Source of the DNA: a virus
Lineage: Duplodnaviria > Caudoviricetes
Length of the DNA: 64,000 nucleotides
Reading direction: 5' to 3' (one strand)
Virus record (IMG/VR): IMGVR_UViG_2900588628_000001
Location: 29,161-93,160 of that record
The notes under the pieces were generated by a model. That model was not told where the DNA came from. It did no database searches and worked only from the letters and a program-made list of their open reading frames with translations. Position 1 is the first letter of the stretch. Each line of letters opens with the position of its first letter. Positions 19,508 through 46,611 of this stretch are shown here, one piece after another. The position numbers were made by a program, and so were the translations under genes.

Positions 19508-19869
19508 TCGTCTATCTCGCGAAACTGAAAACCCGCAAGGAAATGGAGCAGACCATACCGCGCGATGAGTGGGGTTGGTGGCACGACGTATGCCCCGGCG
19601 AAACGCTCATTCTGCGCGACGCAACGGAGGGCGATTTCAAGCGCGTCACCATGAATGAGAACACTTCGACCGACCCGACCGACTACCTGTGCGAGACGTG
19701 CGAGCGGCCCGCGCTCGTGAGTCGCAAGGCCGTCGAATGGCTCTCGATTATGGTGCCCGTCACGCACACCGGCGCAACGGTCACGCGCGACAACACGATG
19801 CTCACGAAGGCATACGCGCGCGAGGTTTCGGAACACGAGGCCCGCGAGCGCGCGAAAGCGGAGCTATAA
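19504..19869 (+). CDS. hypothetical phage protein
   Basis: GTGA-coupled ORF. Confidence 0.6.
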   Translation: MIVYLAKLKTRKEMEQTIPRDEWGWWHDVCPGETLILRDATEGDFKRVTMNENTSTDPTDYLCETCERPALVSRKAVEWLSIMVPVTHTGATVTRDNTMLTKAYAREVSEHEARERAKAEL

Positions 19870-19896
19870 AGCTATCTCCCACAACAGGAGATAATC

Positions 19897-20148
19897 ATGT
19901 CCGCTGAATTTGACACCCGTCGTCAGCCCACGCCCGTATGTCCGACATGCGGCCACGCGCTCACAACCAATGAACTGTCCGGCATCTTGTCGGACCTCGA
20001 AGGCTCGCCGGTTGACCTCGTTCGCCTGGCACCCGATGAGAAGTTCGCACAGATTGCGTGCCCGGTTGCCGAGTGCTGTACGCCGTACTGGATCAGCGGC
20101 GGCTATGTGCCGCTGTATGCGACCGGGCTGACGCGCGACGACGTCTAA
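19897..20148 (+). CDS. zinc-ribbon protein
   Basis: AGGAG RBS; CPTC...CPVAECC. Confidence 0.65.
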   Translation: MSAEFDTRRQPTPVCPTCGHALTTNELSGILSDLEGSPVDLVRLAPDEKFAQIACPVAECCTPYWISGGYVPLYATGLTRDDV

Positions 20149-20169
20149 CCTGCATTCCCTTTTCGCCCC

Positions 20170-20979
20170 ATGACTCACTACCCGATGAACAACACGGCCG
20201 CGAACGCACTGCGCGCGGCATTCGAGCGCGCGTACGAGCACGGTGACATACCCTTGCTCATGCCGCACGAGCCCGCGCAGCCGTCGCTCGCGCGTGTCTC
20301 GCCGACCACGAACGAGAGGGCGGCGCGCGTTATCGAGCGCTGCCGGTTCCACATTACCGGGTACGTGCTCAGTGACACATGGGAATTGCGCAAGGCCATC
20401 GTTGAGGAAGGCGCGGTGCGCTGGCTTCCCAATCGCGAGGATTTCACGCGCGTAATGCAATGGCAGGACACGAAAGGCCCGAACACGCCGCCCGATGAGG
20501 CAATCGGCGATGAGCTTATCGGCACGGCCGCGCAGGCCGTCAGCGCGCCGCCGATGGTTATCGCCGCGCCCGCTGCGCCGTCGCGCCCGGTTCTCACCGC
20601 GCCGCCGTCCGCGCGCCTGCTCGAATCGACAGAGGAAGCGCTTGGCGTGCTCGCGGGCGAGCTTGGATGCGTTCGCAACGAGGATATCCCGCACAACGCG
20701 GGCTGGTTCGTGCCCGGCAAGGCCAAAGCCTACGCCAGCGCGCTCGATGCCATCAAAGGGCTGGTTTCGAGCCTGAAAGCGGGCGGAACGGTGTATGAGA
20801 AAAAGGCCGCCGCGCCAAAGGCTGATGTGCCGGGCGACGTCGCCCACACAGACGCGATGCTTGGACGCGTCGCGAGTGAAATCAGCCAGGTACGTTTCGA
20901 CAATGAAAAGGCCGGGCTGACTGCGCCGGTCAAGAAAAAGAGCGCGCCCGTCGATGACAGACAGGACGCGCTTTTCTAG
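20170..20979 (+). CDS. hypothetical protein ending in QDALF
   Basis: 269 aa; last gene before the convergent collagen cassette. Confidence 0.7.
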   Translation: MTHYPMNNTAANALRAAFERAYEHGDIPLLMPHEPAQPSLARVSPTTNERAARVIERCRFHITGYVLSDTWELRKAIVEEGAVRWLPNREDFTRVMQWQDTKGPNTPPDEAIGDELIGTAAQAVSAPPMVIAAPAAPSRPVLTAPPSARLLESTEEALGVLAGELGCVRNEDIPHNAGWFVPGKAKAYASALDAIKGLVSSLKAGGTVYEKKAAAPKADVPGDVAHTDAMLGRVASEISQVRFDNEKAGLTAPVKKKSAPVDDRQDALF

Positions 20980-29145: not shown

Positions 29146-29573
29146 AACGGCTGATGAGCTTTCCACAATGTGAGCCTGAGCAAATTGAAGCCGGGCACCG
29201 TGATCCTATCCCTGAATCCATCATCGTCAATGGCCGCTCCGTGCGTAACAGGTTCCGCCGTGGCGAGCGCAAGGCAGGCTATAACGTGATCGCGATTGAC
29301 GTGAAGATCACGCGGCGTTACGCGTTCGTGAAACTCACCCGCGAGGCGTATGAGCCCATCGAGCCCGATGCAGGTTCCGACGAGTGGCACATGTCATTCA
29401 CCGAAAACACCACGTACTACGCTCTATCGCCGGAAGAACTGGCGAGCGTAGAGGTTGAGATTGAGACGGCCGAAAGTCACGGCGCGCAGGTGTCGCGGCG
29501 GGCCGATCTTGCAGAAACAGTCACGCTGTCCGCTACGTTCGACTATGCCGGATATGCTGCGAGGACGTTATGA
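29142..29573 (+). CDS. hypothetical protein
   Basis: ATGA-coupled. Confidence 0.6.
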   Translation: MKRLMSFPQCEPEQIEAGHRDPIPESIIVNGRSVRNRFRRGERKAGYNVIAIDVKITRRYAFVKLTREAYEPIEPDAGSDEWHMSFTENTTYYALSPEELASVEVEIETAESHGAQVSRRADLAETVTLSATFDYAGYAARTL

Positions 29574-31243: not shown

Positions 31244-31678
31244 ATGAAGCGATTGAAAGTCTCCGACCTTTCCGGTCCTCAACTTGATTACTGGGTTGCG
31301 CGTGCGGACGGCATCGAGCGAGCGGTGATATTGTCCCGGCCGAACGACGACCCGTTTTCTGGCTGTTTCGCACCCAGTTTCGCATTCGAGCACGAGGTTT
31401 TGCCTGATTTAGACCCTTCGGTAGATTTTGAGGACCGCAAGCCGGATGATTACATGAATTACAACCCCTCTATCGATTGGCGCGTAGGTGGACCGATTCT
31501 TGAACGCGAAGGCCTTTCTATCGAGTGCAAAAAGAAACGTGACGGCACGATGAAGTATCGCTGCCCGCAGTGGACCGATAAATGGAGCGAGACATATCTG
31601 CTTGCTGGCATGCGCGCCTTTGTCGGCCTGAAATTCGGCAACTGGGTTTCGCCACAGAAGATGGCGGACGGAATCTAG
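31244..31678 (+). CDS. NinX/DUF2591-family protein (second copy)
   Basis: KVSDLSGPQLDYWVARA...YNPSIDWRVGGPILERE...LLAGMRAFV. Confidence 0.8.
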   Translation: MKRLKVSDLSGPQLDYWVARADGIERAVILSRPNDDPFSGCFAPSFAFEHEVLPDLDPSVDFEDRKPDDYMNYNPSIDWRVGGPILEREGLSIECKKKRDGTMKYRCPQWTDKWSETYLLAGMRAFVGLKFGNWVSPQKMADGI

Positions 31679-31711: not shown

Positions 31712-31933
31712 ATGAAGCCGGACCCGACATACGAGCAGCACTTAGAAACGGTGCGCGCCGCGATCATGCGGCGCATCGTACAGGCCCGCGAGCACCCGCC
31801 CGGCAGCAAACAGCACGGCGCATACCTTGGCACCGCAGAGACGATTCTCACCGGGTTCCTGCGCCATTGGGACGTCAGCGACACCGACGAAACGCGCCTG
31901 CGCCGTCTCATCGACAATGAACGCGCCGCCTAG
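31712..31933 (+). CDS. hypothetical protein
   Basis: 73-aa ORF. Confidence 0.5.
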   Translation: MKPDPTYEQHLETVRAAIMRRIVQAREHPPGSKQHGAYLGTAETILTGFLRHWDVSDTDETRLRRLIDNERAA

Positions 31934-32109
31934 TCGAGCAGCGTTTTCACGCGCACCGCGAGCGATAGATACTCGCTCACCCATTTCGGAAACTTGCCCG
32001 CACTCACCCAACGCGACACCGTCGTTGGATCGACGTCGAACCGTTGCGCGAATGCTCGCTGGCTCCATCCGAGCACCGCAAGGCTATGTTGGAAGTCTGC
32101 ATTTTTCAT
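31930..32109 (-). CDS. 59-aa Xre-type HTH protein (not in ORF track)
   Basis: Hand translation MKNADFQHSLAVLGWSQRAFAQRFDVDPTTVSRWVSAGKFPKWVSEYLSLAVRVKTLLD. Confidence 0.75.
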   Translation of the reverse strand: MKNADFQHSLAVLGWSQRAFAQRFDVDPTTVSRWVSAGKFPKWVSEYLSLAVRVKTLLD

Positions 32110-32182
32110 AGCATAGATATTAGCAAAAGGCCGATCTTTGCGCCGGTCTGTATCTGCATTTTGCAGTATGGAGGGTTTTGCG

Positions 32183-32419
32183 ATGGAACTGCCTCAATCA
32201 GACGGTGCCGACACGGCCACGGTATTCACGGCCGCGCTTGGCGTGCTGTTCAAGACGCACCCGAACCCGGCCGCACTGCTCGCCGAGTGGGAGCAGATAG
32301 CCGCGCACATGCCGCTCATGATGCTGAAAAACGGTGCGGCCGACGTCGCGCACAATGCGAACGTGGTGATCGCGCAGGGGCTGTTGCATATCGCCCGCGA
32401 GGCGGCGAAAAACAGTTGA
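32183..32419 (+). CDS. hypothetical protein
   Basis: GGAGG RBS before ATG 32183. Confidence 0.55.
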   Translation: MELPQSDGADTATVFTAALGVLFKTHPNPAALLAEWEQIAAHMPLMMLKNGAADVAHNANVVIAQGLLHIAREAAKNS

Positions 32420-32443
32420 CGCATGAGAGTGCACTGATAGACT
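32416..32443 (+). promoter_or_regulatory. sigma70-type promoter for the RNA array
   Basis: TTGACG-N16-TAGACT; predicted +1 (~32450) coincides with the first base of a 10-bp closing stem. Confidence 0.7.
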
Positions 32444-32449
32444 GGCCTC

Positions 32450-33210
32450 GCTTTCACGTCGAGGGTTCGGCGGCAGTCGGTGGGCGCGGCTGCTCGTAGG
32501 GTCACTTCTCAATTCCTTAACGCTGCCATATGCGAGCGTCGAGCGCGAAACGTGAAAGCACTCTCAGAACGGTCGTAGCTCAGTCAGGTAGAGCACCCCT
32601 CGTATGGGGAGCGGAGCGCTGTGCAGGGTTTAGCGGCCCTGTGTATCTCTGGGTATCGGCCGGTATCGTCGCGGGTTCGAATCCCGTCGGCCGTTCTGAG
32701 GGTCAGCGTGGAAAGCAGACACGCCATAGAGCAGGGCTGGAGCGGCAGGCGCGAAGTGAGACGAGCAGTGACACCAGTAGAGGGCGAAAGCCCGTCGAAG
32801 CCCACTGCACACGAGGCACGTAGCCGACGCGGAATACCAGAGCCGGATTAGCGCCCGGCACTCTCAACAGATGCGAAACCGAGGGCGGCGGTGAGTCAGT
32901 AAGGAAAGCGTCGATTGAACGATGTAGCGTTCGGCGCGGAGCCTGAAAGCAATAGACCGTGCGAGTGGTGGGGCATGGCGTTAAAGTCCAAGCTACCGGG
33001 ACACGAGCGGAGGAAGGGTCCGCACACTCACTCATGGCGATTGAACGCGCGGCAGCGTCCGGTAATGGGCCTAAATGCCAGCACACCAAATCCGGCCAGT
33101 CGCCAGCAGTGAGAGGGGAATAGCGCGGGCTGACGCGCGGCCGTACCGTTCGCGGTGTACTCTGGACCGCAAAGCCGGAAGGATTGCAGCACCGGCCACT
33201 CTCAACGCAT
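32450..33210 (+). ncRNA. array of structured, partly tRNA-like RNA modules
   Basis: No credible ORF; successive closed stems; recurring TGAG(A/G)G / ACTCTCA junctions; D-arm and T-arm-like hairpins. Confidence 0.7.
32569..32695 (+). ncRNA. tRNA-like RNA (127 nt; no canonical anticodon arm, no CCA)
   Basis: Acceptor ACGGTCG/CGGCCGT; TA; D-arm GCTC-AGTCAGGTA-GAGC; T-arm GCGGG-TTCGAAT-CCCGT; about 50 extra nt between the arms. Confidence 0.75.
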
Positions 33211-33264
33211 GGCGACTAGTCAGGCGCGGCATAATGGCGTTCTAATCCACCACACGAGGCCGCA

Positions 33265-33555
33265 ATGAATCGCCCCCACCTCTTGCATGTCAAGTTCGAT
33301 ACAACCGTGATGCGCGGCATCATGGAAATTTCGCGCAGTGTCATCGAAGGAAAAGTAGCACTGGAAGCAGGCGCGCCGCCGCTCGACCGCGCAAAGGCTC
33401 TGTCGAGCGCCTTCACCGAGGCCAACGTGTTCATGACCGTGCTCGAAACAATGAGCGCGGACGATCCTGCGCAAGCCGCTGAGTTGAAAACTCTGATGCA
33501 GGAAGCCAAACAACACGCCGCATGGGCCGCGTCTGAAATCGCCAAGGCTCGCTGA
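33265..33555 (+). CDS. hypothetical protein
   Basis: GAGG RBS; followed by a convergent hairpin (~33579-33599). Confidence 0.6.
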   Translation: MNRPHLLHVKFDTTVMRGIMEISRSVIEGKVALEAGAPPLDRAKALSSAFTEANVFMTVLETMSADDPAQAAELKTLMQEAKQHAAWAASEIAKAR

Positions 33556-33601
33556 AAATCTCAACGAGCACGACACACACGCGGGCCTTGCGCCCGCGTT
33601 A

Positions 33602-33898
33602 TCATTGGCGCATCGCAAGCCACAAATCCCCCTCGCTTCTGGCCTCATCGAGCGCCAGCATTTGCAGGTACGCGCCCCAGGCATCGACCGGCCGCGCACT
33701 GTTCGCCTCTTTCAGCCACTTCGCACGCTCAACCTCAGGCCGCGCAGTGAACCACGCGATGCCCTTGCGGGGTTCCTCGTGTCGATTGGCCGGAAACATT
33801 TCGCTGCGCACCCGCATATCGCCAACATACAGGTGCAGGTGATAGCCGCCGCCGTAGGCTTCAGCGCGCGGCTCGACGGTGTAGCGGTATCGCGACAT
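33602..33898 (-). CDS. hypothetical protein, paralog of 34376..34696
   Basis: Shared Y.V.PR....GGG(Y/W).L.L, GIAW(F/W) and VDA(W/Y)GAYL motifs. Confidence 0.7.
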   Translation of the reverse strand: MSRYRYTVEPRAEAYGGGYHLHLYVGDMRVRSEMFPANRHEEPRKGIAWFTARPEVERAKWLKEANSARPVDAWGAYLQMLALDEARSEGDLWLAMRQ

Positions 33899-33904
33899 GG
33901 CAAG

Positions 33905-34303
33905 TCACCCCGGATAGTTTTTGTGCATCCACGCGCTCGCTTCTTCGATGGAGCCAAATTCCTCAAGCACCTGTTCCGGCACGCCGGGACGCAGCGATAC
34001 GATCACCGCAAAGAAACGATCAGCGCTACCCCTGAGCACCGGGCGCGAGCGGTATTCGTTCCATCGCGTCATTTGCTGTTCCGCGAGCGCGCAGGCGGCC
34101 TCGTAGTCATCGGCTACGCCCCAGTACGTCGGCCGGTCCCATGCGCCGCCATTCAGACAGCGGACGTCGATCTTGCCGTCATCCATCGTCACGCCGAATG
34201 GCTTATCCCACCAGGCATCGAGTTCCGCTGCGCTGCGGTCCTCATTGGGCGTGTTGTCGAAGTTATCCGGCAATATCGGGTCAAGCGGAATACGGGCGGG
34301 CAT
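33905..34303 (-). CDS. hypothetical protein (plasmid-type)
   Basis: GAGGAG RBS; WWDKPF...VRCLNGGAWDRPT. Confidence 0.7.
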   Translation of the reverse strand: MPARIPLDPILPDNFDNTPNEDRSAAELDAWWDKPFGVTMDDGKIDVRCLNGGAWDRPTYWGVADDYEAACALAEQQMTRWNEYRSRPVLRGSADRFFAVIVSLRPGVPEQVLEEFGSIEEASAWMHKNYPG

Positions 34304-34375
34304 GGCTATGGCTCCTCTGTGGTGAACCCACATTTTGACGCATTCTCGCGGGCTCGCGCGGCGCGCTATGTCGCC

Positions 34376-34696
34376 TCAGAGAGACAGAATCCACGCGTCG
34401 CCTGCGTCCATCGCCTCGCAATGCGCCTCGTTCCGAAGGTACGCACCGTAGGCATCCACGACGCGCCCGGTATCTCCTGCCGCCCGCATCCATTCCCTGC
34501 GCGTCTCCCCGTCAAGGCAGTTCCACCAAGCAATGCCTGTACATGCCGCAGCCATCGGATCAGCCGGGTACACGCCGCCGCCCACTTCCACACCGTCTTG
34601 CAGCAAGCGCAATCGCCATCCCCCCCCAACTTCCGGCGCGCGCGGCAAAACCTCGTAGTCGCACCGCGTGCCGCCACTCCCGCCATCGCTCGCCAT
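34376..34696 (-). CDS. hypothetical protein, paralog of 33602..33898
   Basis: GGAGG RBS before ATG 34696; shared motifs. Confidence 0.7.
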   Translation of the reverse strand: MASDGGSGGTRCDYEVLPRAPEVGGGWRLRLLQDGVEVGGGVYPADPMAAACTGIAWWNCLDGETRREWMRAAGDTGRVVDAYGAYLRNEAHCEAMDAGDAWILSL

Positions 34697-34862
34697 AATT
34701 CCTCCAGGGTATCGTGAACCGCCATTGCGCCGCAACCGCAACAAAACATGCAAAGTTGTCGACCATGGCCAAAGCCCCGCCAGCCTTGGCTTTCAGCGAT
34801 TTATCGCCCCCGAAAACGACACAGTTGTCGATCAGGCTTTTTGCACGCCTGCTGCACAAAAG

Positions 34863-39117: not shown

Positions 39118-39128
39118 CGGTTTTCCTA
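39086..39128 (-). promoter_or_regulatory. putative late promoter downstream of terminase
   Basis: TAGGAAAAC-N28-GATAAT on - strand. Confidence 0.55.
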
Positions 39129-40679
39129 GTTCGCCGGCGCGGCGTTTTGTGCGGCCTGTTGCTGCAATCTCTCCATCACGCGAGCGCGCGCGGCGGCCTT
39201 GTTGTCGGCACCCGCGCCGGTGTCAAAGTCCTCTGCGAGCGAGACGGTCGCGTTCTCCAGAAAAACGAATGAGCATGTGTCCCAAATGTCCGGCGAGGGG
39301 ATGCCCTCTTTGCGCATGTCGTCTTTCTTCGCGATCACGCGGCGGGCCTTTTCGTCATAGCTGTAGGGAATGCGTGAGCCCTGTTCCACGAGCTTTTTGA
39401 CGAACGACTTAGGCACGTCCGCAGAGATACCGAACCGACCTTCCTGCACCGCGCGCGAGAGGCCGCAGATAGCCTGCGCACGCTGGTTGAAATACCGTTC
39501 CTTGTATTCCGTGGCGAAGTTCGGCGCGCCCCAATTGACCTTTGTGTAGTTGGCGAAGCCGTCAAGGTCCAGTTGCTTGCACACGATCAGGCCCATACCG
39601 CCCGCGTCGATCAGTGCGTTCGAGTTCGGTCGCTCGCGCGATTCCGTGATTACATGGCCGTGCAGTTCGGCCGGATTGATGGTGTTCGAGTGCAGCGGCA
39701 CGGTCGTAAGCTGCGCACGGCGCGCGTCCGGGCCGTATTCGCCCTGGCCGTTGACCTTGAACGCAGGCATAACCGACCAGTCGCGATAGCCGCCACCTGC
39801 GACGTCGAGCGGCAGCAGCCAGCCGTAAGGCTCGCCCGGCTTGATGACTTCGAGCCCGTATGCCGCCTCGATAGCTTTCGGACCAAGTAGAAAGCGGCTG
39901 CTGTTCTCAGGGAACTCGCCGAGCACCTTGATCGAATATTCTTCTTCGGTGTACTGCTGCCGCTTTTCCAGAATGAACGCGGCCGACACAATCGGCGATT
40001 CCTCGCTGTTGAACACGAGGGCATTCCACACGCCGCCATGATCGCGGCTCAGTTTGTGGTGCGTGTCGTAGAAAAAGCCCGTCGGCCGGGTCGGCTGCGA
40101 CGCAATGGCAATGCGGTTGTTCGCGTCCGTGAGGGAGCCGGTGATAACGCCGAAATTCGAGTCGGGAATACCCGACGCCTCATCGCCTAGCCACAGCAGC
40201 CAGTCACGGTGCGCACCTGCGAGGTTTTCAGGGGAGCCACGCGGCGCGGTCTTTGCGATGACAAACCAGTTGAGCTTGAAGCCCTTCACATAGACGCGCT
40301 CAGACTCAATCTCGAAATACTCCCTGATCCACGACTGCGGGCCGTTCTGGATTTTGGTCGAGAGGTCGGCGAACTCTTTCCAGACACCATCCGATACGGT
40401 CGTGATCTTCGGCGCGGTGAGGATTGTGTTCGAGCAGAAGTAACAGAGCAGGTGCCACAGGGCGATGATGGCAAAGCCCGACGTCTTGCCCGTACCGTGG
40501 CCCGACGATACCGAGGTGCGCGAGCCCGGATCACTGACGCTCTGGAATAGCTCGATCTGCTGCCACGTCGGCACAAGCCCGCATACCTCGATAGCGAAGC
40601 GCACGCAATCGAACGCGTACCGCTCGACAAACGAGCGATAGCGGGCGTCCAGCGGCAGCGAGATACGGGTTTGCGCCAC
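39126..40679 (-). CDS. terminase large subunit (P1 PacB-like)
   Basis: Walker A SGHGTGKT, Walker B DEASG, nuclease LDVAGGG and SPDIWD. Confidence 0.92.
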   Translation of the reverse strand: MAQTRISLPLDARYRSFVERYAFDCVRFAIEVCGLVPTWQQIELFQSVSDPGSRTSVSSGHGTGKTSGFAIIALWHLLCYFCSNTILTAPKITTVSDGVWKEFADLSTKIQNGPQSWIREYFEIESERVYVKGFKLNWFVIAKTAPRGSPENLAGAHRDWLLWLGDEASGIPDSNFGVITGSLTDANNRIAIASQPTRPTGFFYDTHHKLSRDHGGVWNALVFNSEESPIVSAAFILEKRQQYTEEEYSIKVLGEFPENSSRFLLGPKAIEAAYGLEVIKPGEPYGWLLPLDVAGGGYRDWSVMPAFKVNGQGEYGPDARRAQLTTVPLHSNTINPAELHGHVITESRERPNSNALIDAGGMGLIVCKQLDLDGFANYTKVNWGAPNFATEYKERYFNQRAQAICGLSRAVQEGRFGISADVPKSFVKKLVEQGSRIPYSYDEKARRVIAKKDDMRKEGIPSPDIWDTCSFVFLENATVSLAEDFDTGAGADNKAAARARVMERLQQQAAQNAAPAN

Positions 40680-41519
40680 TTACTCGCCCTGCCCGTTCTG
40701 TTCGCCTAGCTGCAATTCCGCCTGCTTGCGGGCCTCTGCCTCTGCACGAGCACGCGCCGCCCGCTCGATACCCTGCCGGTACACCTCGTTCAATTCGTCG
40801 GTTGTGGCGGTCGTGACGGCCGTCGTGACCTGCGCATCAACCTGCTCGCGCCATCCGGCGATGTTCTTCAGTGCAAGGGTTGCGAGGCGCGACTCATATT
40901 GGCCGCCCAAACCGCCCTCTTGAAGCAATGCCGACTGCAAATCCCGGCTACGCGCGTAGGCGTAAGAAAATTCCGGGTGCTTGAGGGTCTTACCGTCCTT
41001 TTCGGTCGCTACAGACCAGTCGTGAAGGGTCTGCCGCGTGCCCCCGATTGAGTCGGCGAAACGTTCGAGCGTCGGGAAGCGATTGAGCACGGTTTCAGTG
41101 ACCGTCATCGGCTTGCCTTCCTTATCGGCCTTGGTCACCTCTACTGAGCGCTCGACGTCAATGCGAAAGAACGCAAGGATCATGTCTACGAACTCATCGC
41201 GGTAGACAGTCGGCCGCCCTACCAGTCGCTTGAGCACGCTGGCCGTTTCTTTCTTCTCTACGGGCGGCATGGGTGCGGGCGTGCCGGCTTTCAGCGGATT
41301 CGCTCCCTTACGCTGCGCCGGTGCCTTGGCGGCCTTCCTAGCCGGTGCCTGCTTCGCCGGTGCGGCCTTCTTTGCGGGCACCTTGCGCGCCGCCTGAGGC
41401 TTTGCCTTCCCCTTAGGCGCGGGCGCATCTTTGCCCGGCTGCTTGGCGGGTTGATTCTCAGGTTGATCGTTTGCGCTCTTACCTGCGCGCCGCCCACCCG
41501 GTGTCTTGCGAGTTGCCAT
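40680..41519 (-). CDS. terminase small subunit with Lys/Ala/Pro-rich N-terminus
   Basis: GRPTVY...PTLERFA...RQTLHDW...HPEFSYAY...LKNIAGWRE; immediately upstream of TerL. Confidence 0.8.
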   Translation of the reverse strand: MATRKTPGGRRAGKSANDQPENQPAKQPGKDAPAPKGKAKPQAARKVPAKKAAPAKQAPARKAAKAPAQRKGANPLKAGTPAPMPPVEKKETASVLKRLVGRPTVYRDEFVDMILAFFRIDVERSVEVTKADKEGKPMTVTETVLNRFPTLERFADSIGGTRQTLHDWSVATEKDGKTLKHPEFSYAYARSRDLQSALLQEGGLGGQYESRLATLALKNIAGWREQVDAQVTTAVTTATTDELNEVYRQGIERAARARAEAEARKQAELQLGEQNGQGE

Positions 41520-44485: not shown

Positions 44486-45595
44486 TTATTGTGCGTGGAG
44501 GTGCGCGGCGCAGGCGTTCGCGTCGCTGTAATACGGGAATTTCGAGTCGATGCGCACGGCGGGCGTGTCACAGTGCGCGCACGTCTCGACATGCTTGCCT
44601 TGTGCGCGGGCATCCGCGAGCAGCATCGGGTCGCAGAATGTCCAGTCCGCGTTAGGGACGTAGCACTCATCGGCCTGCATCGCGCGAAAGCCTTGCTGCA
44701 CGCGCGGCGCGCCGTAGTAATCGCCGCGCGCGAGCGTGTTGACGGCGTTCTGCAACAGGCGAACAGCCGCGGCGTCGCACGGTGCCGCATACGAGCCGAG
44801 AAAGGCGCACGCGCGCGGCTTTTCGTCCTCAGTCCAGTGCCCCTCGTAATCGTCCAGGCGAACGACGGTGCCGACCGGCAGACGCTGACAATAAATCTCA
44901 CCTTTGCGCGTGCGCACGTTGAGCGTGCTGAAACCGTCGGTGAGCGCAACGAGGTACACGAAGCCCGTCGTATCGACGTGCTCGCCAACGTGACGACCCC
45001 ACCCGTATAGCTCGACCTGCTGCGTGTTGAGCGTGCCAACGACAACGTCGCCCTCGATGCGATCCTCGCTCGTGTCCGCCACGTAAGCCGCCGCCAGCGC
45101 CTCGATGACGACCCGATGGCCCGCGACGCTTTGCGCGACGTCGATGCGGCCGACGACCTGCAGGGGCTTCGCCTCAGGTATCGCTATGCCCGCGCGCGTG
45201 ACGTACTCGACACAGTCGGCGCGCGACATGCCGCGATCAGCGAGGTTCGCATACACCGCGAAACCGTTGTACGCGTTCATGTACGCGTCATAGCGGCCTT
45301 GTTCCTCTACGGGCACCCCAATGACATGCGCGTCCGTTTCGAGCCGGTACAGGCCCGTCTGATCGACGGCCGCCAGCGGTTCGGTGATCGCGGCGGCCGG
45401 GTCATCGAGCAGCACGACGGGCACAGTGAGCCATTCCATTGCGGCGCGCAGCCAGTCGGTGTCGATATCGGCGCGCAGCGCGACGACAACGAGCGGCAGA
45501 GTGTTCGCGTCGTGCTCGTTTTCGCGGATGGCGAGCTTCGTGGCGGCAAGCGATGCCGGGTCATTGGTGAGCCAGCAAACGATACGTCGAGTCAT
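44486..45595 (-). CDS. fusion: degenerate PAPS-reductase-like N-terminus plus 2OG-Fe(II)-dioxygenase-like domain and Zn ribbon
   Basis: RRIVCWL...ASLAATKLAI; HVD...GHW...KPR; C-terminal CAHC...CAAH. Confidence 0.55.
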   Translation of the reverse strand: MTRRIVCWLTNDPASLAATKLAIRENEHDANTLPLVVVALRADIDTDWLRAAMEWLTVPVVLLDDPAAAITEPLAAVDQTGLYRLETDAHVIGVPVEEQGRYDAYMNAYNGFAVYANLADRGMSRADCVEYVTRAGIAIPEAKPLQVVGRIDVAQSVAGHRVVIEALAAAYVADTSEDRIEGDVVVGTLNTQQVELYGWGRHVGEHVDTTGFVYLVALTDGFSTLNVRTRKGEIYCQRLPVGTVVRLDDYEGHWTEDEKPRACAFLGSYAAPCDAAAVRLLQNAVNTLARGDYYGAPRVQQGFRAMQADECYVPNADWTFCDPMLLADARAQGKHVETCAHCDTPAVRIDSKFPYYSDANACAAHLHAQ

Positions 45596-46611
45596 TGCGG
45601 GGAGTCTCCGTTAAGGTGCTTGGGAACGCTGTTGCGCTTGGCTAGATCGCGCAGCGCGGCGCGGGCTTCTTCTGGCATGGCCTTGCGCATCGCCGCCGCT
45701 TCCGGCGCGGGCACAGGGTCCATAGGGGTTACGGGTTTGGCGCGAGGCGTCGGCGGCTTGCCGCCGTTGTCTATCGCGGCTTGAATGCGCGCCTGATACG
45801 AGGCATCGCTTTCACCCGGAATCGGATCGCCAACGCCGACTTCGTGCGCCTTGGCTTTGCGCGACTCAGGCGACAACCACCACCCGCCGCCGCCCTTCTT
45901 GCCGGTTGCCGCGCGCATCGGCCCGGCGTTGCGAATCCAGTTGCGCCACGTCGCGGGCCAGTCGTGTTTCGTCGCGTCCTTGCCCGACTTGGCGGCCCAG
46001 TAATCGCGGAACTTCTCTGCCTCGAAAAGCGTGTGCTGGATCGACCACGCGCCGCCAGCCCATTCGGTGAGCTTTTCGGCATACGTGACGGTCACGGCTA
46101 CCGTGCGTTCGAGGGCTTCTTTGGACAGTTCCCAGTCGTTCGGCAGGCGCGTAGCGCGTGCTCTATCTGGTTTTCCATCTGGTTTACCATCTGCCCTATA
46201 TAGGGAGTCGGCGGTATCGCCCTTTGCATTTGGCAATTTCGCCGAATGGACATTCCCGGTATCGCCATTTCCATTTGGCGAATCTGCGAAATGCTTGCCG
46301 TCGGGCACGAACGCGGTTTCGTCGGCGAACGCGTACCACAGCGTGCGGTCGGTTTTCTGCTCGTTGTAGTTGCCCTTGATGAGCACGCCTTGCTTGATGA
46401 GGCTATCGAGCGTGCGGCGGATGCGATCTTTCGAGAGGTACGGAAACAGTTCGGCGAACGCGGCGACCGAGTTATACGACCACACGCGATCATCCCGAAC
46501 GTTCTCACCGTTCGCGCGGTTGCGCGCGATCCAGAAAGTGAAGTTGTGAATCATCACCGCTTCCTCAAGCCCATAGAGGCGCGCGTGATCCGTGTCGAAC
46601 ATGTGATGCAC
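45592..46611 (-). CDS. lambda O-like phage replication initiator (wHTH plus DnaT-like C-domain)
   Basis: WSYNS...FPYLSKDRIRRTLDSLIKQGVL...DRTLWY; RLPNDW...FRDYW...DWPATWRNW. Confidence 0.8.
   Translation of the reverse strand: MHHMFDTDHARLYGLEEAVMIHNFTFWIARNRANGENVRDDRVWSYNSVAAFAELFPYLSKDRIRRTLDSLIKQGVLIKGNYNEQKTDRTLWYAFADETAFVPDGKHFADSPNGNGDTGNVHSAKLPNAKGDTADSLYRADGKPDGKPDRARATRLPNDWELSKEALERTVAVTVTYAEKLTEWAGGAWSIQHTLFEAEKFRDYWAAKSGKDATKHDWPATWRNWIRNAGPMRAATGKKGGGGWWLSPESRKAKAHEVGVGDPIPGESDASYQARIQAAIDNGGKPPTPRAKPVTPMDPVPAPEAAAMRKAMPEEARAALRDLAKRNSVPKHLNGDSPQ
46165..46293. repeat. intragenic direct repeats, candidate lytic origin
   Basis: Two degenerate 36-mers starting GGTATCGCC at 46213 and 46258 (45-bp period), plus 12-bp ATCTGGTTT(T/A)CC repeats. 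Confidence 0.55.

Follow-up and report, generated by a model that had tools for sequence, protein, structure and literature searches.

A promoter-headed array of RNA modules in a Burkholderia-type phage or phage-plasmid, with one module from a family of tRNA-shaped phage RNAs

Analysis of a 64,000-nt stretch of a caudoviral genome (IMG/VR record IMGVR_UViG_2900588628_000001, positions 29,161 to 93,160; hereafter the window) revealed that positions 32416-33264 form a promoter-headed, ORF-free array of RNA modules, referred to as M1 to M7 (Table 1). The last of them, M7, belongs, as a divergent representative, to a large family of phage RNAs of the sRNA-17 type that are shaped like tRNA. The carrier is a Burkholderia-type phage or phage-plasmid with a terminase, Rep, NinX and a homolog of P1 Lxr. 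Comparison with related loci supports four modules or groups of modules (M1; M2; M4-M5 together with the M6 hairpin; M7), and the compensatory changes found in M1, M2, M6 and M4-M5 point to RNA rather than to protein or DNA as the functional level. Since the whole 816 nt fold no better than shuffled sequences (z +0.21), the evidence for the array is comparative and not thermodynamic. We give slightly better than even chances to the explanation that a temperate phage or phage-plasmid here carries an operon for stable RNAs, the transcript of which would be processed into small RNAs acting in trans. "Empty" stretches near promoters and tRNA genes are common in phage and prophage genomes, and the one described here strings together RNA folds that are real and selectable.

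Table 1 Features of the RNA array and its flanks in the window
Feature	Positions	Strand	Description	Basis
HTH gene	31930..32109	-	59 aa, Cro/XRE-like, divergent from the RNA operon	Weak HTH_3 match
Promoter	32416..32443	+	Sigma-70 type: -35, 16-nt spacer, extended -10	Promoter scan, partly conserved
M1	32450..32559	+	B motif inside a 10-bp stem starting at the predicted +1	Fold z -2.5, covariation
M2	32561..32702	+	tRNA-derived domain in a 15-bp extended acceptor helix	Rfam, covariation, fold z -3.66
M3	32697..32866	+	Junction domain: 7-bp closing stem, first and last hairpin	Single-sequence fold only
M4	32871..32976	+	Variable domain, 4-bp closing stem 32871-32874 / 32973-32976	Comparison
M5	32977..33025	+	Most conserved core of the array, hairpins 32986-33002 and 33007-33023	Comparison
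M6	33027..33113	+	Long H hairpin: conserved 9-bp upper stem, internal loop, variable tip	Fold z -3.43, homologs
M7	33109..33205	+	Divergent member of the sRNA-17-type tRNA-shaped phage RNA family	Model R2
ORF	33265..33555	+	96 aa	ORF list
Hairpin	33579..33599	.	GC-rich, 8 bp, between convergent genes; candidate terminator	Read from sequence

Promoter, flanking genes and related arrays

The first-pass annotation, made from the letters of the window, had described promoter-driven, separately folding RNA modules, and this reading is supported; every motif quoted there was found where it had been placed. The near-consensus promoter that it proposed matches the hexamers at 9 of 12 positions, with a TG preceding the -10 element, and is the sole sigma-70-like site in positions 31800-33800, where 0.5 sites are expected by chance. 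Two related loci, L045 and L212, have retained both the -10 element and the 6 nt between the promoter and the first stem. The claim that no credible ORF follows the promoter was also borne out: the ORFs inside the array stretch gave no Pfam match at E 0.1, and indels between homologous modules are not multiples of three.

The divergent HTH gene upstream is 66-72% identical to equally placed divergent genes beside the arrays of plasmid pBVIE05, a B. lata plasmid and L212. On the other side, the 96-aa ORF, for which neither Pfam nor PHROG nor the plasmid search yielded a match, is probably co-transcribed with the array; the terminator scan called nothing between the two. The hairpin beyond this ORF is possibly a terminator, judging from its sequence; it has a weak T tail, was not called by the scan, and the genes downstream of it lie on the minus strand. 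A 370-aa plus-strand ORF downstream was considered as an antirepressor-like gene and rejected, since it shadows genes on the minus strand, among them the P1 Lxr homolog.

About ten related mosaic arrays were identified in other Burkholderiaceae plasmids, prophages and viral contigs, with the same modules occurring in differing order and number. On this comparison of sequences, the modules are exchanged like cassettes among phages of this group. True tRNA genes are present in equivalent arrays (tRNA-Met and tRNA-Gly in L069, four tRNAs in L004). BLAST of the 871-nt stretch gave no match among 50,697 phage records and only pBVIE05 among plasmids, while in species-representative genomes (400 Burkholderiaceae and 95 Burkholderia) a clear array was found only on the B. 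lata plasmid. A metagenome scan with the M5 core returned six matches, one of which (L234) is a true relative; short-pattern scans of viral contigs gave mostly chance matches, which were filtered by BLAST.

Structure of modules M1 to M6

The stem that had been proposed for M1 was confirmed as 10 bp (32450-32459 / 32550-32559). Its interior belongs to a covarying motif, the B motif, which is also present in Burkholderia chromosomes and is uncatalogued; a literature search revealed no named Burkholderia sRNA that matches it. The motif comprises a long closing helix, a hairpin of 7 bp whose 7-nt loop is conserved, and a 3' box that is likewise conserved, and M1 aligns throughout, scoring 71.5 bits in its own genome with nhmmer. 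In the alignment of 19 sequences, 95.9% of cells pair and 14 pairs have changed on both sides, a level reached in none of 500 shuffles, with many G-U pairs on the array strand.

The tRNA-like character of M2, likewise suggested before, is well founded. The Rfam tRNA model (RF00005) matches positions 32569-32695 with 40.2 bits, above the gathering cut-off of 29, with an insert of ~55 nt and with the anticodon arm of the model left unaligned. Across five homologs, all 155 cells are paired and nine pairs have changed on both sides. Like a tRNA, M2 has an acceptor of 7 bp, U8-A9, GG in its D arm and the canonical loop on its T arm, but it differs in that a 4-bp stem with a 6-nt loop takes the place of the anticodon arm, the ~55-nt insert forms an extra structured arm, no CCA is encoded and the acceptor runs on as a 15-bp helix. 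No 7-nt anticodon loop is present; the loop measures 6 nt, or 5 nt in L002, and its sequence varies among the homologs. As read from this fold, M2 is a tRNA derivative in which the elbow (D and T arms) is kept and the anticodon loop is lost. The covariance model R1, constructed for this module, scores it at 166.7 bits; over 150 family genomes it recovered mostly ordinary tRNAs below 47 bits, and two new relatives were recognised only by reading the sequence.

ARAGORN called no tRNA in the window, rejecting M2, and no tmRNA in either the window or the assembly. In the Rfam search (E 10, positions 32300-33400), nothing except the tRNA model matched; GOLLD, ROOL, C4 antisense RNA, tmRNA and the Y-RNA models gave no match. 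A bacterial Y RNA (YrlA type, bound by Ro/Rsr) was also rejected for M2, as the 99.99%-complete genome has no TROVE match and the control genomes were positive.

Among the remaining modules, the stems described for M3 exist, but its interior has a homolog in none of the loci searched and is not matched by R2, the model for the M7 family. The support for M3, which is private to the window, is therefore that of single-sequence folding; its 5' strand overlaps the 3' strand of the M2 helix. The order of acceptor, D-like arm, cargo, T-like arm and acceptor had been claimed for at least four modules and is seen in three (M2, M3 and M7).

The closing stem of M4 is kept in four loci, with one compensatory change. 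M5 is 83-90% identical in L234, L002 and L069, and its second hairpin contains two covarying pairs. This is the hairpin that had been read as T-like, and it is kept; the proposed D-like stem is absent in the relatives, which conserve the 4-bp hairpin 32986-33002, and a tRNA-like reading of M5 is unsupported. The long M6 hairpin was found as predicted, and eight homologous H hairpins share 17 consensus pairs, six of which show compensatory changes. A search for complements of the invariant loops among host tRNAs gave one match of 8 nt; it involves the first loop of M5 and is not significant once five tests are allowed for.

M7 and its phage RNA family

An alignment of four Burkholderiaceae M7-type modules was too poor to model and was replaced by R2, a covariance model built from unrelated IMG/VR members only, with the window and its relatives excluded. 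R2 recognises M7 at 33109-33205 with 28.2 bits (E 3.4e-5 in 160 kb), the next-best match in the window reaching 15.4 bits (E 0.1); close relatives of M7 score 52-65 bits. M7 by itself folds no better than shuffled sequences (z -0.33). The module is confirmed and placed in a large family.

In this family, a closing stem of 7 bp encloses a first hairpin of 5 bp, a variable cargo of 30-160 nt and a last hairpin, also of 5 bp, which stacks on the closing stem. Pairs 1-6 of the closing stem are paired in 93-99% of members, with three to five pair types each, and an invariant G-C is present in addition; the stems comprise 38 different 7-mers and are 90% paired, compared with 56% when partners are shuffled. 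The first hairpin, located 3-4 nt after the closing stem, has a covarying 5-bp stem and an invariant 6-nt loop, and the last has an invariant 5-bp GC stem and a 9-nt loop. G-U combinations outnumber A-C combinations by 17 to 7. The cargo is the least conserved part, whereas the invariant loops and the covarying stem are kept from enterobacterial to Burkholderiaceae phages. A 7-bp closing stem with a 5-bp last hairpin has the dimensions of a tRNA minihelix, and in 10 of 85 modules NCCA follows the stem. The first-pass annotation had envisaged scaffolds in which a variable insert replaces the anticodon arm; some modules of the array are tRNA-shaped in this way, and the M7 family is exactly that design.

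M7 conforms to this plan in its closing stem and its first hairpin. Its closing stem has 6 bp (33110-33115 / 33199-33204) with a 2-nt/1-nt mismatch before the junction, its first hairpin (33124-33139) has a 5-bp stem and the identical 6-nt loop, but its last hairpin (33174-33196), although it carries the 5-bp stem of the family, has a loop of 13 nt in which one conserved position of the loop core is different. Covariation or compensatory change among homologous loci, proposed earlier as a check, is thus present in M1, M2, M4-M5, M6 and the M7 family.

Family members are present in phage P1, in mEp460 and in at least 120 contigs of IMG/VR, and one BLAST query located an element in 181 of 5426 complete E. 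coli genomes; among the matches listed, the public records mostly have no annotated feature at that place. Beside the 85 members analysed, we detected no conserved neighbouring protein or downstream gene and no consistent defence or anti-defence neighbour. A terminator-like hairpin lies downstream of 21 of these members, and none was seen behind the other 64.

That the array belongs to no named family holds for Rfam, where neither the M7 family nor any other module is listed; however, one family member has been published as sRNA-17. In E. coli K1 RS218, where an mEp460-type prophage carries it, Northern blots and RACE revealed this RNA as a species of 193 nt (Song et al. 2020, PMC7719688). The primers and alignment of that study match the mEp460 family element, which R2 scores at 85.9 bits, and the full-length primer begins 2 nt before the closing stem. 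The authors treated sRNA-17 as a trans-acting sRNA modulated by ArcA and described no conserved fold or family; it is the sole member studied, and it affects both the expression of host genes and behaviour in a mouse model (PMC7719688). Like M7, it is phage-borne (here in a prophage) and absent from Rfam, and it runs from a closing stem through a first hairpin whose loop has 6 nt and a variable cargo to a last hairpin, the loop of which has 9 nt in sRNA-17. It stands alone as a gene of a lambdoid early-left region and ends in a terminator of its own, whereas M7 is one module of an array, has no terminator and shows the longer last loop and the mismatch beside the closing stem. The family and its fold provide a structural context for sRNA-17.

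A close parallel to the array is the ban operon of P1 (AF234172), in which a phage-plasmid promoter, P1ban, under the control of the C1 repressor, drives hundreds of nucleotides of non-coding RNA interspersed with tRNA genes. In this stretch, beside the tRNA genes, R2 detects two modules of the family (62.6 and 31.7 bits), and the window also has its homolog of P1 Lxr. The two are not similar at the BLAST level, the B, H and M5 modules were not found in P1, and P1 has real tRNAs and a dicF-like region, whereas the window is without a functional tRNA.

Small stable structured RNAs are known from phage tRNA clusters, namely species 1 and 2 (RNA C/D) of T4, and C4 of P1 and CI of P4 are immunity RNAs processed by RNase P that pair in antisense fashion with sites in their own operon. 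All of these lie with or beside phage tRNAs and are released by tRNA-processing enzymes, and P1 and P4 are elements of the phage-plasmid type. The array differs from C4 and CI in having no sequence or Rfam match to them (the C4 model is in Rfam and gave none) and no antisense target sites identified here. In the TMERs of murine gammaherpesvirus 68 (PMC4337559), tRNA-like units are strung to hairpins and host tRNA processing frees small RNAs; these differ from the array in belonging to a eukaryotic virus, in pol III transcription and in their miRNA products, and they have no homology to it. Other prophage-borne enterobacterial sRNAs include STnc100 (RF02076) and PasD (bioRxiv 10.64898/2026.05.13.724894). 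The STnc100 model matches nothing in the contig of the window at E 10, nor did it match any of 15 loci containing M7-family members when the cut-off was E 0.01.

Proposed processing into small RNAs and alternative explanations

These data raise the question of how such a chain of modules might act. In the explanation that we favour, the sigma-70 promoter would start the transcript directly at the first stem, the 0.8-kb chain would follow, and host RNA-processing enzymes would cut it where modules meet, with RNase P or RNase Z acting on the 7+5-bp minihelices of acceptor and T-like arm and with the long hairpins left to RNase III or RNase E. The small stable RNAs so released would act in trans. 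The conserved -10 element and spacing, together with related arrays that close in a terminator with no ORF behind it (L234, L237 and L380), are consistent with a transcription unit. The tRNA genes in equivalent arrays and in the P1 ban operon, the minihelix dimensions and the occasional NCCA point to tRNA processing; the detection of sRNA-17 argues for a discrete RNA and the lack of a conserved neighbour gene for action in trans. The invariant loops would more probably bind a conserved host factor than base-pair with mRNAs.

Several observations run against this explanation. The acceptor of M2 is a fully paired, covarying 15-bp helix, a poor substrate for RNase P, which suggests that M2 may stay embedded. 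Neighbouring closing stems have 7-mers in common and could therefore pair in either of two registers that exclude each other, an arrangement as compatible with a switch as with processing. The low score of M7 against its family model, its weak folding alone and the small share of members followed by a terminator-like hairpin also count on this side.

The leading alternative, to which we assign a low probability, is that the array stays uncut and works in cis as a leader or switch that controls read-through or translation of the 96-aa ORF, its complementary border 7-mers permitting alternative pairings. The position of this ORF behind the array, with no terminator called in between, is compatible with a leader function, and most family members likewise have no terminator after them. 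The M2 helix and the M3 closing stem compete for 32697-32703 and M6 and M7 for 33108-33115, while the consensus fold of the H hairpin reaches into the common 7-mers, where one relative has a compensatory change. However, the stretch with the ribosome-binding site of the ORF has no stable fold (z +1.07), on which ground a hairpin enclosing the start codon was rejected; other related arrays precede unrelated ORFs or end in a terminator; and the modules recur in unrelated genomic contexts.

A bolder reading, a shade less probable still in our estimation, would make the M7 family a new functional class of phage RNA, extending from Enterobacteria to Burkholderiaceae, that docks onto a universal host machine reading tRNA shape. 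The arrays would then combine several copies of the scaffold with a tRNA elbow domain and titrate or re-program this machine in infection or lysogeny. The proposal is based on the 7+5-bp minihelix, on two invariant complementary loops that would imitate the tRNA elbow and on the free cargo slot; RNase P, the CCA-adding enzyme, EF-Tu and the ribosome are candidate machines. Mimicry of tRNA shape with a variable cargo is a testable idea, and tractable systems for it exist in phage P1 and in B. vietnamiensis G4 carrying pBVIE05.

Phages carry tRNAs that counter tRNA-targeting nucleases, and the first-pass annotation had proposed that the modules are tRNA-shaped decoys for such defence nucleases (PrrC/RloC, PARIS, retron effectors). 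The canonical elbow and acceptor of M2, and the tRNA dimensions of the M7 family with its occasional NCCA tail, agree with this idea. These nucleases cut anticodon loops, however, and it is precisely this loop that is absent from the modules or varies among them: none has an anticodon loop of 7 nt, and conservation is lowest at the cargo position. The 3' end of M2 would become free only through processing, and no defence or anti-defence gene is consistently adjacent. For these reasons we regard decoys as improbable.

Slightly more doubtful even than this is a decaying phage tRNA gene cluster with no present function. M2 is clearly tRNA-derived, intact tRNAs occur in equivalent arrays, and M3, private to the window, would suit decay; yet the compensatory changes that hold the helices of M1, M2, M6 and M4-M5 argue against it for most modules, as do the wide conservation of the M7 family and the conserved promoter geometry.

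An element acting as DNA (protein-binding repeats, an origin or a packaging site) is very improbable: the 7-mer junction repeats and inverted repeats are DNA palindromes too and the promoter spacer contains one copy of the 7-mer (at 32424), but the G-U pairs make the helices strand-specific, the closing stems of the M7 family vary and still pair, the promoters of relatives have no 7-mer, and the terminase and Rep genes lie 6-13 kb from the array.

A conserved predicted transcription unit built of RNA cassettes

The ORF-free array at 32416-33264 represents a conserved type of unit, running from promoter to terminator, in which covarying RNA folds are assembled from shuffled cassettes and are associated with tRNA genes. 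The window comes from a Burkholderiaceae genome of 9.7 Mb (contig C141), and predicted genes of a phage or phage-plasmid surround the array (see table). The closest public relative of the region is pBVIE05, an 88-kb plasmid of Burkholderia vietnamiensis G4, in which the stretch equivalent to the array carries no annotation. A divergent 59-aa HTH gene adjoins the array in the window, pBVIE05, a B. lata plasmid and the viral contig L212. A 370-aa plus-strand ORF downstream (33605-34717) was rejected as the shadow of minus-strand coding (33602-34753) that includes the P1 Lxr homolog.

Features of the array, its surroundings and related elements (window coordinates unless a locus is named)
Feature	Position	Strand	Remark
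P22 NinX-like gene	31244-31678		
Module M1	32450-32559		contains 'B' motif
Module M2	32561-32702		
Module M3	32697-32866		
Module M4	32871-32976		
Module M5	32977-33025		
Module M6	33027-33113		long hairpin
Module M7	33109-33205		
Small gene, paralog 1	33602-33898	minus	homolog on pBVIE05
Homolog of phage P1 Lxr	33905-34333	minus	52% identical
Small gene, paralog 2	34376-34753	minus	homolog on pBVIE05
Large and small terminase	39126-41519		
Replication initiator	45592-46611		
Holliday-junction resolvase			in gene set around array
'B' motif, chromosomal examples	L026:1425-1541, L010:1487-1603 (minus strand)		
M7-family model sites, phage P1	AF234172 (L228): 19818-19919 and 20079-20202	plus	ban-operon strand

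The promoter proposed in the first-pass annotation proved to be the only sigma-70-like site within 31800-33800, with 9 of 12 matches and TG ahead of the -10. The first stem starts 6 nt past the -10, and the identical -10 and spacing recur in pBVIE05 and L212. The absence of a credible ORF was likewise upheld: a Pfam search of ORFs within 32450-33264 returned nothing even at E 0.1, and the indels that separate homologous modules are 1, 8 or more bases long.

Related arrays were found in pBVIE05 (L045/L210), the B. lata plasmid (L002/L211), where an IS fragment interrupts the array, the viral contigs L069, L212 and L380, the metagenome contig L234 and three further genera of Burkholderiaceae (L004, L237, L241). 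These arrays are mosaics in which common module types occur in different numbers and orders. Intact tRNA genes lie within the transcription unit in L069 and L004, and in L234, L237 and L380 the array ends in a clear terminator with no ORF. Among species-representative genomes such arrays are rare, being detected by BLAST in 1 of 95 Burkholderia species. The IS fragment that truncates the B. lata array is the 3' part of an IS3-family transposase gene (L002:2000-2190). Two arrays, L212 (minus strand, ~3290-3040) and L380 (minus strand), share at their end a conserved 3' module of ~60 nt with a strong terminator behind it; the window lacks this module, for which Rfam gives no match.

Folds of modules M1 to M6

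The whole 816 nt fold no better than shuffled sequence (z +0.21), and the same holds for M7 (-0.33) and M4-M5 (-0.64), so the case for structure must be comparative; M2 (-3.66), M6 (-3.43) and M1 (-2.5) fold better than their shuffles.

Of the RNA searches suggested in the first-pass annotation, the Rfam scan of the array returned one family, tRNA (40.2 bits, 32569-32695, with an insert of ~55 nt), and ARAGORN reported neither tRNA nor tmRNA. The tRNA-like character ascribed to M2 is confirmed by five homologs, in which all 155 alignment cells over the acceptor, D, anticodon-like, extra-arm and T helices are paired and nine pairs have changes on both sides. The acceptor extends outward to a 15-bp helix, and this extension also covaries; three of its pairs are exchanged in L004 and L234. 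The hairpin at the tip of the extra arm has a different sequence in every relative in which it occurs, and the loop at the anticodon position is 6 nt long (5 nt in one relative). M2 is therefore a structural domain derived from tRNA rather than a decoding tRNA. A role of M2 as a Y-RNA partner was excluded, since the genome contains no Ro/TROVE gene.

The interior of M1 is a motif, termed 'B', which is also found in the chromosomes of many Burkholderia species at one or two copies per genome (L005-L030); M1 is the sole copy in the genome that holds the window. Over 19 sequences the consensus fold has 95.9% of its cells paired (29-47% when the partners are slid), and 14 of 26 pairs show changes on both sides, a value matched by none of 500 shuffles. 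Because many pairs are G-U, the fold is specific to the array strand. The motif has no match in Rfam. One chromosomal copy precedes the lectin gene bclA (PA-IIL) by ~300 nt, and another lies directly upstream of a DUF6402 gene; the motif could be a cis-regulatory leader or an sRNA.

M6 is a member of a class of long hairpins whose 9-bp upper stem is conserved and whose tip varies, with a small internal loop; across eight copies, 6 of 17 consensus pairs show compensatory changes. Three relatives share 83-90% identity with M4-M5 and retain both hairpins and the 4-bp stem closing M4, with a few compensatory changes; the D-like stem previously assigned to M5 is not retained. M3 consists of a closing stem, a first hairpin and a last hairpin; no relative of it was found, and the covariance model of the M7 family does not match it. 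The conserved 9-nt first loop of M5 (32990-32998) is perfectly complementary over 8 nt to two host tRNAs, a match that loses significance once multiple testing is considered; the segment concerned, which is conserved in tRNAs, spans the last part of the acceptor 5' strand and the first part of the D arm. The loop also has a 6-nt complement in M2.

M7 and a family of tRNA-shaped phage RNAs

Searching IMG/VR contigs with the 3' core of Burkholderiaceae M7-type modules gave matches in at least 120 contigs, against ~5 by chance. From the matched contigs listed, 85 distinct modules of 66-202 nt were taken, all of which are built alike. The closing stem and a 4-nt junction are followed by a 5-bp hairpin whose 6-nt loop is invariant, then by a cargo that varies both in length and in sequence, and finally by a 5-bp GC hairpin, its loop 9 nt long, that abuts the closing stem on its 3' strand. 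The invariant loops of the first and last hairpins are complementary over 5 nt. On comparative grounds the predicted closing stem is beyond doubt in the wider family: its 38 different 7-mers are 90% paired, versus 56% (maximum 60%) after swapping partners between modules. An alignment of 34 members has 95.4% of its cells paired and ten pairs changed on both sides, a result equaled in 0 of 500 shuffles. The closing stem, including an invariant G-C, is mostly 7 bp long and the stacked last hairpin 5 bp, the same dimensions as in the acceptor/T-arm minihelix of tRNA. Ten of the 85 modules are followed by NCCA (~1 by chance) and a quarter by a terminator-like hairpin, and a tRNA lies within 1 kb of 9 of 84. 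Rfam holds no matching entry, and no conserved protein neighbor was found. A relation to the sRNA STnc100 was not confirmed: its Rfam model (RF02076) matched nothing at E 10 on the window's contig and nothing at E 0.01 across 15 loci with M7-family members. With one query, the element was detected in 181 of 5426 E. coli genomes, and it occurs in 20 phage records; most of the matches listed in these genomes and records have no annotated feature underneath.

A covariance model built solely from members unrelated to the Burkholderiaceae arrays scored 85.9 bits in mEp460, 62.6 and 31.7 bits at two sites in the phage P1 ban operon, 30-65 bits in the array relatives and 28.2 bits (E 3.4e-5) at window 33109-33205. 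M7, being significant with an independent model, is therefore a divergent member; its last loop is longer, and a small mismatch lies next to its closing stem. Judged by sequence correspondence, the mEp460 element is the published sRNA-17, whose full-length, RACE and Northern oligonucleotides and alignment fall on it on the same strand (PMC7719688). One cassette type is known to accumulate as a discrete RNA in E. coli (PMC7719688).

The first P1 site overlaps plp and upl, both annotated as minus-strand CDSs, and the second falls directly past upl; these small CDS calls may merit re-examination. In some viral contigs, L276 (357-640), L267 and L273, a tRNA-shaped module is nested in a larger tRNA-like frame, in the order short outer stem, module, canonical T arm and second T-arm-like hairpin.

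Junction pairing and possible fate of the transcript

In the Burkholderiaceae arrays, one pair of complementary 7-mers serves all closing stems, so that every 3' strand has two possible partners, its own 5' strand and the 5' strand of the following module; pairing with the latter lengthens the intervening hairpin or tRNA-like helix. Both predicted registers have some support: the extended helix of M2 covaries, and one H hairpin (the long M6-type hairpin) of L234 shows a compensatory change in the 7-mers. The overlap may be a switch, may result from cassette duplication or may serve to order the processing.

We infer that the transcript would be processed at the tRNA-like and hairpin borders and that the resulting RNAs would act in trans. 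The earlier proposal of decoys for anticodon nucleases fits poorly, because anticodon loops are precisely what the modules are missing.

Since the relatives' promoters lack the 7-mer, its copy inside the promoter spacer (32424-32430), upstream of the predicted start, is probably due to chance.
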